A stretch of 15,072 bases of DNA from a virus (IMGVR_UViG_3300029862_000313), one strand, 5' to 3'; numbered from the stretch's first letter, positions 2,455-8,711 are shown. Notes: generated by a model from the letters alone, not told the origin. A program made the numbers and translations.

Positions 2455-2839
2455 CCTGTTTACCTCTTTCTCAGGAAGTTTAGTCTCCAGGATTCCCGGG
2501 GCGGTTCACCTAGTCAGACACTCAGATGTAGTGCTCCGCAGCGGCATGCGGGGGAATACAAAAACTCGGACAAAATTGGGCCCTCCTTTTTGAATCACTC
2601 GCGGGGATGTAGTTATTAATACATGGGAAAAGATCTGTTTTCAAATCCAACATTATATGGTTTCAATACCACGGGGTGGCTATGTGGCTATGTGTTTCTC
2701 ATTATTATTTACAATCTACTGTAATCGCTCCGAACGCAAATGCGTCAATACTCGAATCAACTGATCATCCTGCCACGACTGAAATCTCAAATAGGCCGTT
2801 TCTCAAGTAAGAGATTTTGAATGCATTATTGGCTACTGA

Positions 2840-2868
2840 AATAAAAAACCCAGCGCCAACTGGGTTCA
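2840..2868 (-). terminator. Rho-independent terminator downstream of the 164-aa secreted-protein gene
   Basis: AACCCAG (2847..2853) pairs with CTGGGTT (2860..2866). On the - strand transcript the hairpin is followed by a U-run (A-run 2841..2847 on +). Confidence 0.55.
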
Positions 2869-2883
2869 TATGAAATTTTTTTG

Positions 2884-3378
2884 TCATTTCCAATTGCAAG
2901 ACTGTGAAATTTTTTCCACAACCTTATCAATCTCAGACAAGTCAAACTCAACTACTTGCATAGTTGATCCATAAGGTTCAAACCCAAAAATAGCTTTTTT
3001 ATGCTTAGCCAAGGTCTTTATAAATTGTATTGGTTGTGGAGCAAATGCAGAATCACCGCCTTCCCCACCTCCCCAAGCACTCTTGACCGGCTTTCCGCCA
3101 TCTAACCGCACTGTAATTCTTGGGTTGTCCGAACCCATATAATCATTGAATGATAAATAGGCATCTGTTTTGTTATCACTACAACGCAACACCAGTGAAG
3201 TTGCACGATCAGTACCTGCTTTGTTATATGAATCTGGTGATAAATTAAGAGCCACAAAGTCAGTCTGGTCAGTCATTTTATTTATCTCAGACTTTGTTAT
3301 CCACGACCCTAACTTCTCTACACCAGCATTTGCAGTAAACGAGGCACTTATGACAAAGGCTATAATAAATTTTCTCAT
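2884..3378 (-). CDS. Secreted protein of unknown function, 164 aa, N-terminal signal peptide (cargo gene in AT-rich segment)
   Basis: Signal peptide MRKFIIAFVISASFTANA followed by a hydrophilic mature domain with a Gly-rich patch (WGGGEGG). Low-GC gene in low-GC flanks with its own terminator. No family recognised. Confidence 0.6.
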   Translation of the reverse strand: MRKFIIAFVISASFTANAGVEKLGSWITKSEINKMTDQTDFVALNLSPDSYNKAGTDRATSLVLRCSDNKTDAYLSFNDYMGSDNPRITVRLDGGKPVKSAWGGGEGGDSAFAPQPIQFIKTLAKHKKAIFGFEPYGSTMQVVEFDLSEIDKVVEKISQSCNWK

Positions 3379-3524
3379 AACCCTATCTCCTTGGATTTAA
3401 AGAACTAAATATTATCAAGTCTCTTGCCACTAGAAAACCCACTTTATTTCCAAACTCTGATGGCATTCCTGAAAATCCGCTTCATACTCACTTGCCCCGC
3501 CCTATCATCCTGAGTAGCTAACCG

Positions 3525-3698
3525 TTAAACAAACGTTCGCCAGACCTTACCATCAATGACCAGGATTCCTGCCCGCGCCATTTTTGCCGCAGCCTGATTT
3601 ATGCTGGTTAATGTCACACCTGTTGTCGCAGCAACGTCCGGCGCACAGAAGCTCTTGTGCGTCTCCAGATAATGAATAATTGCCTCTTTGCCCGTCAT
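3525..3698 (-). CDS. ren: Ren-like protein, C-terminally truncated/divergent (57 aa versus 96 aa in lambda)
   Basis: ATG overlaps the P stop codon (ATGA at 3695..3698 on -). My translation is MTGKEAIIHYLETHKSFCAPDVAATTGVTLTSINQAAAKMARAGILVIDGKVWRTFV*, matching remembered lambda Ren up to about residue 55 and then diverging into AT-rich DNA. This ORF is below the 60-aa cutoff of the ORF track. Confidence 0.6.
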   Translation of the reverse strand: MTGKEAIIHYLETHKSFCAPDVAATTGVTLTSINQAAAKMARAGILVIDGKVWRTFV

Positions 3699-5408: not shown

Positions 5409-5948
5409 TCATATTGCCCCCAGCATGGTGGTCACCATCGCCATTAATGGACCAGCCAGATCCGGGTCCACACGAAACATCGACACAATACCTTCACTCA
5501 TTTCCTTCAGTTTCTGGTGGCGTGGTGCGTTGAGAATGACAGCCTGTTTTGCCTCACTGAGTTCCTTTTCCATTTCAGCCAACCGAGTCATGAAGCTATC
5601 CTGCTCAACCAGGTAACCGCGATATTCCAGCGGTAGTACCGCCAGAATTGCCGGGGTCAGTTCACGCACGTTATTTCGGTATTTTTCAGAATCGAATTTG
5701 TTATCGAGGAAGCGGAACAGCTTCTGGCGTGCACGGCTGACATCATCAGGGAAATCGATGGTGCCGTCGCCCTGCTCCCGATACTCATTCACAATGAGTG
5801 CGGCAACGACATCCTGATTATCTACAGCCGACCAGGCGCGGACGGCATCACGGATTTTTTCGTGGCCTGGAGCTTGTTTTGTTTGAGAACGATTTATCAC
5901 CGCAGTCGGAATAAATCCGCTAGTCTGTTGGTATGTAAGTGGTTGCAT
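5409..5948 (-). CDS. CII-position regulatory protein, 179 aa, possibly YdaT-family (functional analogue of CII)
   Basis: Sits between cro-like and O where lambda has cII. AAGGAG RBS 7 nt upstream of ATG at 5946..5948. Family assignment rests on position and on the Cro partner resembling the YdaS type; the sequence was not confirmed. Confidence 0.5.
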   Translation of the reverse strand: MQPLTYQQTSGFIPTAVINRSQTKQAPGHEKIRDAVRAWSAVDNQDVVAALIVNEYREQGDGTIDFPDDVSRARQKLFRFLDNKFDSEKYRNNVRELTPAILAVLPLEYRGYLVEQDSFMTRLAEMEKELSEAKQAVILNAPRHQKLKEMSEGIVSMFRVDPDLAGPLMAMVTTMLGAI

Positions 5949-6352: not shown

Positions 6353-7042
6353 ATGAAAACAACACTCTCAGAAAGACTTAAAGAAGCCAGATTAGCGCGA
6401 GGCCTTACACAAAAGGCGCTTGGGGATTTGGTCGGGGTTAGCCAGGCTGCTATTCAGAAAATCGAAACAGGGAAAGCTAACCAAACAACTAAAATCGTGG
6501 AGATCGCGAACGCTTTGGGTGTGCGCGCAGAATGGTTATCTTCTGGCGTTGGAAATATGTCAGACAGTACAGTGCAACCAATACAATCAACTGTCAGCCA
6601 TTCCAAATACTTCAAAATTGACGTTCTTGATATAGAAGTCAGTGCCGGGCCAGGTGTAATCAACCGTGAGTTTGTAGAAGTTCTACGCTCGGTTGAGTAC
6701 TCGTTTGACGATGCTCGTCACATGTTCGATGGCAGGAAGGCGGAAAATATCCGCATCATTAACGTGCGAGGTGACAGCATGTCAGGGACGATCGAACCAG
6801 GTGACCTGCTGTTCGTTGATATCACTGTTAAATCTTTCGACGGTGATGGCATCTATGCGTTTCTGTACGACGACACTGCCCATGTAAAACGTCTTCAAAT
6901 GATGAAGGATAAGCTGCTGGTTATCTCTGATAACAAGAGCTACTCGCCGTGGGACCCGATCGAGAAAGACGAGATGAACCGGGTGTTCATATTCGGTAAG
7001 GTCATTGGAAGCATGCCGCAGACGTACAGGAAGCATGGTTAA
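6353..7042 (+). CDS. cI: CI-type prophage repressor, N-terminal HTH plus C-terminal S24 (LexA-like) autopeptidase domain; not lambda immunity
   Basis: 229 aa. HTH (LTQKALGDLVGVSQAAIQKIETG), candidate Ala-Gly cleavage site (EVSAGPG), Ser nucleophile in GDSMSGTIEPGD and Lys in HVKRL. Unlike remembered lambda cI. Confidence 0.85.
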   Translation: MKTTLSERLKEARLARGLTQKALGDLVGVSQAAIQKIETGKANQTTKIVEIANALGVRAEWLSSGVGNMSDSTVQPIQSTVSHSKYFKIDVLDIEVSAGPGVINREFVEVLRSVEYSFDDARHMFDGRKAENIRIINVRGDSMSGTIEPGDLLFVDITVKSFDGDGIYAFLYDDTAHVKRLQMMKDKLLVISDNKSYSPWDPIEKDEMNRVFIFGKVIGSMPQTYRKHG

Positions 7043-7271: not shown

Positions 7272-7652
7272 ATGAGAAAAATCCTAATCGCTGCCATGAT
7301 GGCATCTGTATTGGCTGGGTGTGCTTCTTCAGGCAACCAGCAACTCAAAAATGAAACTGAAATTAGTGTCCAGTCTAAACTTCAGGAAGGTAAAACAACC
7401 AAGAATGAGGTTAAATCTTACTTTGGTTCTCCTGATGCTGTTTCATATACTGACAGTGGAAACGAGATCTGGAAGTACGCCTTTGCAAAAGTAAAAGTTA
7501 ATGGCACCACTTTTATTCCATTCTATGGATTATTCCATAATGGAACGAACGGTACGAAAAAAGAACTTACTATTCTTTTTAACGATGACACGATTAAGAA
7601 ATACACAATGTCAGAAACCCAAATAAACTCGAAATCAGGTTGGGCTGACTGA
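7272..7652 (+). CDS. Lipoprotein of unknown function, 126 aa, in the rexAB/sieB-equivalent position downstream of cI
   Basis: Signal peptide with lipobox LAGC (Cys18). Preceded by a 229-bp AT-rich spacer and followed by a hairpin terminator. Low GC relative to neighbouring phage genes. Confidence 0.7.
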   Translation: MRKILIAAMMASVLAGCASSGNQQLKNETEISVQSKLQEGKTTKNEVKSYFGSPDAVSYTDSGNEIWKYAFAKVKVNGTTFIPFYGLFHNGTNGTKKELTILFNDDTIKKYTMSETQINSKSGWAD

Positions 7653-7860: not shown

Positions 7861-7910
7861 CATCGCAACGACACAACGATACGGTAACCACCTGTTTCAC
7901 CGTTGCGATG
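7861..7910 (+). promoter_or_regulatory. Structured 5' leader: perfect 10-bp inverted repeat (CATCGCAACG ... CGTTGCGATG) with 30-nt loop, immediately downstream of the pL-like promoter
   Basis: 7861..7870 is the exact reverse complement of 7901..7910. Further GC-rich self-complementary segments follow to about 8045 (e.g. GTCGC-N9-GCGAC at 8025..8043). Function not established. Confidence 0.35.
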
Positions 7911-8132
7911 ACCGCTTAGATCCGCAGTTTGAATTTCAGCAGGCTTCGGGGAGTGCGAGGGGTGAAGCGGACGCGTGAACGTCGGTGTGACCAGCTGAAA
8001 TCAACTCAACACTTCATACCTCAGTCGCTTCAACGAGGCGACTTAGTTATGACAACCGGCGGCCATCCACCGCCTGAATACGCGCAGAAGTCTCTATATG
8101 TTCAGCAGCCCAGCTTACGGGCAGGAGTTTTT

Positions 8133-8339
8133 ATGGTTCATCAACATTACGGAACGCAGACCGTTAATCGAGGTGCGGTCATGCCAGGAATGCTGGTCAA
8201 ACACAAAGATGGTACCTGGACTGCATCAGCTAATTTACGCGGACGGCTTTATCTGCATCGCGGCATCGAGCGCACTTATACCCGTGATTTGCTCGTGGAA
8301 GTTTTTCTCGACGGACGCGGTAACGGCCTGAATCGCTAA
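8133..8339 (+). CDS. Hypothetical early protein (68 aa from the AGGAG-associated start; the ORF is open from 7929, 136 aa)
   Basis: Strong RBS AGGAG (8123..8127) 5 nt before ATG at 8133. Occupies the position of lambda N..kil but shows no similarity to either. The stop at 8337..8339 abuts the point where lambda-like sequence resumes (8340). The longer ORF has an Arg-rich N-terminus but no evident RBS. Confidence 0.35.
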
Positions 8340-8414
8340 TCCCCTTTCCTGTTTTCCTAATCAGCCTGGCATTTCGCGGGCGATATTTTCACAGCCATTT
8401 TCAGGAGTTCAGCC

Positions 8415-8711
8415 ATGAACGCTTATTACATTCAGGATCGTCTTGAGGCTCAGAGCTGGGCGCGTCACTACCAGCAGATCGCCCGTGAAGAGAAAGAGGC
8501 AGAACTGGCAGACGACATGGAAAAAGGCCTGCCCCAGCACCTGTTTGAATCGCTATGCATCGATCATTTGCAACGCCACGGGGCCAGCAAAAAAGCCATT
8601 ACCCGTGCGTTTGATGACGATGTTGAGTTTCAGGAGCGCATGGCAGAACACATCCGGTACATGGTTGAAACCATTGCTCACCACCAGGTTGATATTGATT
8701 CAGAGGTATAA
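8415..8711 (+). CDS. gam: Gam, RecBCD nuclease inhibitor (short GamS-length form, 98 aa)
   Basis: Near-identical to the C-terminal 98 aa of remembered lambda Gam ([21 protein letters not shown]...). Upstream DNA from 8340 matches the lambda gam leader, but the long-form N-terminus is replaced. Confidence 0.93.

Follow-up and report, generated by a model that had tools for sequence, protein, structure and literature searches.

A low-GC cassette in a lambdoid prophage remnant encodes a probable periplasmic moron with a VasI/IalB-like domain

The window analysed here, a stretch of 15,072 nucleotides of viral DNA (IMGVR_UViG_3300029862_000313), contains the remnant of a lambdoid prophage in which a low-GC cassette lies downstream of the gene ren. 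The cassette carries one gene, which encodes a protein of 164 amino acids (aa). In its mature form this protein consists of one VasI/IalB-like beta-sandwich domain, in which the cysteines C66 and C161 are invariant. We hold with high confidence that this gene is a functional periplasmic moron of the VasI-like family. The explanation that fits best overall, and to which we lean on balance, is that a moron with a VasI fold is expressed in the lysogen and resides in the periplasm, where it possibly serves envelope defence or superinfection exclusion. The cassette has the following features:

2832-3453, minus strand: mobile cassette proper, made up of promoter-like element, leader, open reading frame (ORF) and terminator; 622 bp, 38.3% GC
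3409-3417, minus strand: TGATAATAT, extended -10-like promoter element, some 30 nt before the ATG, aligning with cTGnTAGGAT of relatives
3387-3391, minus strand: Shine-Dalgarno sequence AGGAG, 8 nt upstream of the ATG, from the sequence and the upstream alignment
2884-3378, minus strand: ORF for the 164-aa pre-protein, from ORF calling; identical to RefSeq WP_001224617.1
3325-3378, minus strand: signal peptide of the Sec/signal peptidase I type, codons 1-18 (MRK / FIIAFVISASF / TANA), predicted cleavage between ANA and GV
2837-2867, minus strand: intrinsic terminator, AACCCAGUU-GGCG-CUGGGUU followed by a U-run, from terminator scan and RNA fold

An exported single-domain protein

The N-terminus of the pre-protein, MRKFIIAFVISASFTANA followed by GVEK, has a charge of +2, a 10-residue hydrophobic core (mean Kyte-Doolittle value 2.5) and an A-x-A motif. 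The signal peptide was assessed by rule, using manual criteria for the n-, h- and c-regions, and the same n/h/c layout with a small-x-small motif is found in all of the 24 aligned family members. A first-pass annotation, made from the sequence alone, had described a 164-aa protein with a classical signal peptide cut after ANA, and both the ORF and the signal features agree with that description. In the AlphaFold model, residues 1-17 are disordered (predicted local distance difference test, pLDDT, below 50) and the fold begins at residue 20. A few homologues have a cysteine at position 12 in a lipobox-like context, preceded by a segment too short for a lipoprotein signal; for the window protein a lipoprotein reading was rejected because its signal region has no cysteine. 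The product would thus be exported to the periplasm, and nothing points to its release from the cell, so that the word "secreted" in the first-pass annotation stands for export only.

No family could be assigned by eye in that annotation, and here profile searches supplied one. The protein matches phrog_1848 (function unannotated) from end to end with an E-value of 1e-70, and its residues 56-163 match Pfam PF11319 (VasI) marginally, at 27.5 bits against a gathering threshold of 26.5 and over the C-terminal half of the model only. A profile built from 24 close homologues retrieved 3830 cluster representatives at E<=1e-3. All ten long family members that were checked carry PF11319. Where members are longer, the domain forms the C-terminal part and is joined to cytochrome c, Sel1 or DUF2939 modules, as fits an extracytoplasmic domain. 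The alignment of the 24 homologues has 45 invariant columns, C66 and C161 among them, and these two cysteines align with the SCVDN and ACHW motifs of VasI from E. coli EDL933 as well as with the Brucella and Klebsiella phage members. Judged by these profile matches, the 164-aa protein belongs to the PF11319 superfamily as a minimal member made up of the domain only.

The AlphaFold2 model of the protein has a mean pLDDT of 78 and a predicted template modelling score (pTM) of 0.75. Searches of the PDB, by Foldseek with the model and by sequence with the protein and the family profile, gave nothing meaningful, and a structure search of BFVD matched uncharacterised phage proteins only. The protein shows significant structural similarity to the solved structure of IalB (PDB 3dtd; Pfam PF06776), at the level of the fold only, with 9% identity. 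P2-like phage relatives give sub-threshold Pfam IalB matches over the same region, supporting a relationship between VasI and IalB. The window protein itself has no Pfam IalB match, and IalB differs further in being encoded by a chromosomal gene in alpha-proteobacteria. Among the structural matches of the window protein, the second in rank belongs to the polar flagellar LPHT ring, in which the Sel1-repeat protein MotX binds MotY, and in the relative P0112 (469-aa representative) Sel1 repeats are fused to the VasI domain. This hints that the VasI-like fold may be a Sel1-binding module.

The Prokaryotic Genome Annotation Pipeline (PGAP) names the protein TagO, and a true accessory role in a type VI secretion system (T6SS) has to be weighed. 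In favour of such a role, the PF11319 score lies just above the gathering threshold, and the protein has in common with VasI/TagO (TIGR03360; V. cholerae VCA0118, E. coli EDL933_RS01165) the PF11319 domain family, a signal peptide, an RC..N.T strand and a C-terminal C-x-W motif. However, the window protein is about 80 residues shorter and fails the T6SS equivalog model TIGR03360, scoring 14.9 bits against a cut-off of 124.2 where EDL933 VasI scores 257.4. The two proteins are 18% identical (E 0.024), and hhalign gives a probability of 15%. N-terminal Cys…RLxCYD modules, one or more, are present in EDL933 VasI, in gp67 of a Brucella phage and in a Klebsiella P2-like phage protein, whereas the 164-aa family lacks them and its mature protein opens straight with the beta-sandwich. 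In EDL933 the canonical cluster arrangement is seen, with VasI between tssH/vasH and tssA, whereas no T6SS gene lies near a family member in about 20 loci inspected, where the neighbours are ren, P, O, nin or tail genes. Relatives also occur in phages of Brucella, a genus that is not known to have a T6SS. We consider a T6SS accessory role very unlikely. By these comparisons the protein is not a T6SS component, and its name is an over-annotation from a Pfam-level match. Since the equivalog model fails and T6SS linkage is missing, inventories of virulence or T6SS genes that rely on the name would over-count.

A conserved cassette in several phage settings

The gene behaves as one that is maintained. 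Comparison with relatives from Salmonella, Klebsiella and metagenomes for which dS is unsaturated gave a ratio of non-synonymous to synonymous substitution rates (dN/dS) of 0.09-0.19, and within E. coli the ratio is 0.27 (3 synonymous and 3 non-synonymous changes). Of 5426 complete E. coli genomes, 85 (1.6%) carry the gene, which is essentially full length in 83 of them and identical in several, and ren adjoins it in those carrier loci whose annotation was listed or inspected. The order O-P-ren57-gene is also found in the isolated, viable phage IdasGreatGrand. Damage to the surrounding prophage, in which ren is truncated, an insertion sequence (IS) has entered and the nin-to-lysis region is lost, could suggest that the gene is a decaying, non-functional remnant in a defective prophage. 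An intact ORF with dN/dS of about 0.1-0.27, its identity in several genomes and its presence in a viable phage make this hardly credible. The substitution pattern supports a genuine gene under strong purifying selection which is not decaying, and neither absence from related prophages nor pseudogene-like decay, the observations that the first-pass annotation had named as counting against its proposal, was found.

The same annotation had remarked that secreted cargo of prophage remnants is frequently associated with virulence, and this idea, for which the IalB-like fold gives a further hint, would make the protein a virulence or host-interaction factor. The distribution of the gene does not bear it out. 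Carriers come from human, cattle, pig, poultry, frog, crayfish, soil, sediment, salad and wastewater sources and include commensals; their backgrounds include Shiga toxin-producing E. coli, enterotoxigenic E. coli and one urinary isolate, and no pathotype pattern, enrichment or virulence link was seen among the 85. IdasGreatGrand is itself a swamp-mud phage, and the likeness to IalB is confined to the fold. A role in virulence or host interaction is therefore improbable in our view.

The limits of the cassette are set by homology to ren, which stops at about 3454 on one side, and by homology to DLP12-type prophages, which resumes at 2831 on the other. GC content falls to 36-41% over 2550-3450 from 50-57% on either side; the ORF has 39.2% GC (32% at third codon positions, GC3), compared with 50-55% for ren, P and the IS. 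The terminator hairpin (2867 to 2846, minus strand) is a GC-rich stem of 9 bp followed by a T-run; it lies 17 nt past the stop codon of the ORF and folds as RNA with -14.3 kcal/mol (z = -2.3). A hairpin with T-run also follows the gene in 9 of 10 relatives examined, locus L007 being the exception. A scan with Rfam found no RNA element inside the cassette, its sole match being the IS3 ALIL pseudoknot in the neighbouring IS. Terminator scan, RNA fold and GC profile thus agree with the low-GC segment and own terminator noticed in the first pass, and support the view that 2832-3453 is low-GC cargo, acquired horizontally and equipped with its own terminator, in the remnant of a lambdoid prophage.

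Upstream of the gene, the 100 nt before the start codon were aligned for 11 loci representing three different genomic contexts. Around the Shine-Dalgarno sequence, the leader GGAGATAGGGTT-ATG of the window is homologous to the leader GGGGATAGGGAT-ATG of the relatives. Further upstream, TG and TA..T are invariant or nearly so in the 11 loci, compared with a mean identity of 58% for the flanks. Ten loci each contain the exact motif CTGNTAGGAT a single time; in 9 of them it lies upstream of the gene, the exception being the scrambled locus L009. A TGn triplet joined to a TAnnnT hexamer is the pattern of extended -10 promoters, and TGATAATAT may accordingly be regarded as the putative promoter of the gene. 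Most loci also have an upstream terminator hairpin (AACCCGC…GCGGGTTTT), of which the window retains only the 3' half (GTGGGTTTTCT). In loci L008, L019, L020, L021 and L010, a terminator hairpin, the motif cTGnTA(G/A)(G/T)(A/C)T and a leader ending in GGGATAGGGAT-ATG form a module before the VasI-like gene, and in the Klebsiella locus L010 (7505-7612) the same kind of module also stands before the next, unrelated small gene. This suggests that the terminator-TGnTA-leader module is an expression cassette shared by morons in this phage group.

In E. coli the cassette sits between ren and the nin region. The first-pass annotation had taken the nin region to be replaced, whereas ybcN-ninE-ybcO-rusA-ylcG-quuD and lysis genes follow the gene on its 3' side in strains 582, 120899, VR50 and 23CRST038 and in phage IdasGreatGrand. 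Since intact relatives retain the nin genes downstream, the cassette adds to the ren/nin junction and does not replace nin. In DLP12-type prophages of E. coli K-12-like strains the same slot, between ren and ybcN/ninE, is occupied by emrE-ylcJ-ybcK. The two arrangements have in common the insertion point, the flank at 2506-2831 with 90% identity and a degraded ren, but their cargo genes are wholly different. The genes on either side of the cassette are elsewhere adjacent or separated by other cargo, its GC content deviates and it has its own terminator; together with the conserved promoter-like element, these properties correspond to the structural definition of a moron (Juhala/Hendrix).

Homologues with 54-81% identity were examined in Klebsiella, Pantoea, Citrobacter, Salmonella and metagenomic prophages, all of them lying in the tail module between a DUF6246 tail-chaperone-like gene and the tape-measure gene. 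Most of these loci have the gene directly upstream of the tape-measure start, and in three Klebsiella loci two small ORFs intervene. The gene neighbours vary, and KilA-N, Bro-N/P22_AR_C, Arc and SocA genes are sometimes present in the same island. A profile search of genome contigs with the family alignment returned only three loci, one of them the scrambled scaffold L009 (Pantoea sp. BRM17). There, at 7900-8600, the C-terminal part of the VasI-like gene precedes the N-terminal part and is fused to DUF6246-like sequence; the scrambling of this gene and of tail genes is probably a misassembly or a rearrangement, and the locus was not used.

More distant relatives occupy other positions of lysogenic conversion. 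In Brucella phage BiPBO1 (L027, 3012-4429), the 201-aa VasI-domain protein gp67 is encoded 9 nt downstream of a CI-like repressor gene and in the same orientation. This is a rexAB-like position. The RefSeq name of gp67 is TagO, and GenBank calls it "type IV secretion protein". In the P2-like Klebsiella phage 3LV2017 (L026, 3184-4432), a VasI-domain gene lies between ogr and attR, after a gene for a zinc-ribbon membrane protein; the pair is unannotated in 3LV2017 and looks like a two-gene module of P2-like phages. The VasI-domain proteins of 3LV2017 and of Escherichia phage 500465-2 (L018, 4235-5465) are 297-312 aa long with three Cys..RLxCYD repeats, and in both phages a zinc-ribbon membrane protein is encoded upstream. 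Phage 500465-2 was also considered as a defence-hotspot location and dropped, its record including flanking host genes.

These settings bear on when the gene is expressed. It could be a passenger of the N-antiterminated pR operon, or of the late tail operon in relatives, with a role in the lytic cycle such as a change of the envelope before lysis or the exclusion of competitors. The gene is co-oriented with O-P-ren, no intact terminator precedes it in the window, and its relatives are co-oriented with tail genes, all of which would suit such a role. However, most relatives are bracketed by an upstream terminator, their own promoter-like element and a downstream terminator, which is the signature of independent expression, and the tail module can do without the gene, which is missing from the lambda-type tail region of IdasGreatGrand. 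We therefore give a lytic-cycle role a small chance.

The flanks of the cassette and other genes of the window

The cassette is bordered by the following features:

3525-3698, minus strand: short Ren-like ORF of 57 aa, ended by an in-frame TAA; matches phrog_7054 over its full length (E 9e-44) and the Ren-like phrog_142 (E 5e-20)
3454-3524, minus strand: untranslated ren-homologous tail, about codons 59-82 of ren; from blastn, frame-2 translation and the RefSeq pseudogene annotation
2716-2802, minus strand: remnant of an antirepressor-type gene with P22AR C-terminal domain, last 28 codons and stop; from local alignment to locus L003
1199-2508, minus strand: IS3-family element of 1310 bp, which cuts the prophage short at 2509 and connects it with yieK; from ORFs, reading of the ends and the ALIL pseudoknot

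Homologues of lambda P and O lie upstream of the Ren-like ORF. In blastn comparison with lambdoid phages, the ren region (query 1-247) aligns at 79-84% identity down to about 3454. Homology thus extends 71 nt beyond the stop of the 57-aa ORF with the reading frame kept, giving RLATQDDRAGQVS, which corresponds to a stretch of lambda Ren that we take to be RFATREEREGKMS. Since ren homology continues in the same frame past the TAA, the shortened product stems from an in-frame nonsense codon, and the mosaic junction lies some 71 nt beyond it; the replacement affects only the final 14 codons or so of ren. The 57-aa Ren-like ORF was correctly seen in the first pass, and it is the placing of the end of lambda-like sequence at the end of this ORF that has to be revised. 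RefSeq annotates ren as a pseudogene. The same 57-codon ren ORF is annotated in the viable phage IdasGreatGrand (L004, 5681-5854) and has its own PHROG, phrog_7054, so a Ren cut down to its winged-helix-like N-terminal part may be a variant that is stable, and it is not a private defect of this remnant.

On the other side, the end of the IS (…GGCGGTTCA) is read at 2508, and the ALIL frameshift pseudoknot (RF01497) lies at 2057-2173; from its length and end sequence, the element is presumably IS629. With the IS border at 2508/2509, the distance between ORF and IS is 375 bp, exactly as first annotated, including the left border at 2509. This interval had been called non-coding, which holds in part only. 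The antirepressor-type remnant within it translates as ETAYLRFQSWQDDQLIRVLTHLRSERLQ before its stop codon, compared with ETAHVKFRPWQDDKWSRVLPHLRSDRLQ before the stop in L003, and the identity of positions 2506-2831 with DLP12-type prophages is about 90%. The left flank of the IS is chromosomal cbrC-yieK with yieK truncated. The triplets beside the IS (1196-1198 and 2509-2511) are GTT and CTA, without a target-site duplication, and these unlike flanks argue for an IS-mediated rearrangement (inversion or deletion, recombination between copies) and against simple insertion. The part of the prophage beyond 2509, including the nin-to-lysis region, has been lost by this IS-associated rearrangement, which joined the prophage to yieK. 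In close relatives the same IS is found elsewhere in the same prophage: in 23CRST038 it lies within P, and in VR50 it has taken the place of P and O.

Two further genes of the window are worth recording. A 126-aa ORF at 7272-7652 (plus strand) is annotated in relatives as a SEN1984-family lipoprotein or as BamE-like, and scores 21.8 bits with Pfam BamE, just below the cut-off. It lies in a patch of 36-39% GC just downstream of a CI-like S24 repressor gene (6353-7042), the position of rexAB in lambda, and is a second envelope-directed moron of the same prophage. At the position of cII (5409-5948, minus strand), the window encodes a 179-aa protein named "toxin YdaT domain-containing protein" in relatives, which is not of the lambda CII type.

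A possible role in the cell envelope

Taking these features together, the lysogen would transcribe the gene from the cassette's own promoter of the extended -10 type, TGATAATAT (3417-3409). Read-through from the early-right pR operon via O-P-ren may also occur in this prophage, because no intact terminator precedes the cassette here. Translation would start from the strong AGGAG site, and transcription would stop at the terminator of the cassette. The 164-aa pre-protein is predicted to be exported by Sec and cleaved after Ala18, leaving a periplasmic beta-sandwich of about 146 residues with the VasI/IalB fold, in which a disulfide between C66 and C161 is probable. Since relatives lie in lysogenic-conversion slots of unrelated temperate phages, we infer that the lysogen makes the product and that its site of action is the cell envelope.

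Its most likely role there would be to interfere with the crossing of the periplasm, either by the genome of a superinfecting phage during injection or by another tail-like puncturing device such as the T6SS. The hypothesis is drawn from the distant kinship to a T6SS-cluster protein and from a positional parallel with the moron gp15 of phage HK97. According to PMC3594210, which summarises Cumby et al. 2012, gp15 occupies the slot between chaperone and tape-measure genes and prevents superinfecting phages from injecting their genomes; HK97 gene 15 is the founding moron. Each of the two cassettes consists of a single gene with a terminator of its own, deviates in GC content and encodes a product that goes to the cell envelope; gp15 has its own promoter, and its slot is that of the Klebsiella, Pantoea, Citrobacter and Salmonella relatives. 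However, gp15 is a small YebO-like inner-membrane protein, whereas the window product is a predicted soluble periplasmic beta-sandwich; the two have no kinship in sequence or fold, and the E. coli cassette lies at the ren/nin junction and not in the tail operon. By this analogy a role in superinfection exclusion or envelope defence is conceivable, and we put it forward only tentatively.

Several observations weigh against this reading. The exclusion idea draws on position by analogy only, to an inner-membrane protein that is unrelated. No tail genes lie close to the gene in E. coli, and the lambda-type tail module of IdasGreatGrand does not contain it. PADLOC gave no defence-system match for the gene. 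Literature searches on VasI, TagO, PF11319, IalB with prophage, and periplasmic exclusion with tape measure returned no functional data, and a 2026 review gives the function of TagO/VasI as unknown. Expression from the cassette's own promoter is open to doubt as well, since no canonical promoter was detected before the gene in a standard sigma-70 scan for -35/-10 pairs; the promoter is proposed from conservation across loci, and conservation of the motif could partly reflect shared ancestry of the leader.

A variant of the envelope-defence proposal is that the protein shields the lysogen specifically from T6SS attack by other cells, acting as a guard in the periplasm or like an orphan immunity protein and not as an anti-phage factor. 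The periplasmic location, the distant homology to a T6SS-cluster protein and the lysogenic-conversion slots of the prophages would all be compatible with this. No adjacent effector gene is present, however, and no support was found in the literature; with 54-81% identity across genera, the family is also far more conserved than typical, fast-evolving immunity proteins. Such a guard against T6SS attack seems to us an outside chance.

Going beyond the lysogen-expressed periplasmic moron that we prefer for the window, one may speculate that domain-only VasI/IalB-fold proteins form a widespread and unrecognised class of prophage envelope guards which bind tail-like puncturing devices within the periplasm, in tape-measure-dependent injection by siphophages and possibly in the form of T6SS spikes. 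We regard this as a long shot. If true, it would give the first functional handle on the T6SS accessory protein TagO/VasI, and the terminator-TGnTAGGAT-leader module would be a portable cassette for expression in lysogens.

Parts of this picture are already known: the gene is in the databases under a misleading name, the families phrog_1848 and PF11319 exist, and the moron is a textbook element. The immediate result is the correction of the name "TagO". The gene is of moderate worth, which lies in this corrected annotation and in recurrent, well-defined phage contexts that make it an easy experimental target. Given its recurrence in conversion slots together with strong purifying selection, it is both cheap and well defined as a candidate for envelope defence mediated by prophages. 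Should no phenotype be found, it would be one more conserved phage moron of unknown function; a positive result in defence would also illuminate the mechanisms of VasI/TagO and IalB.

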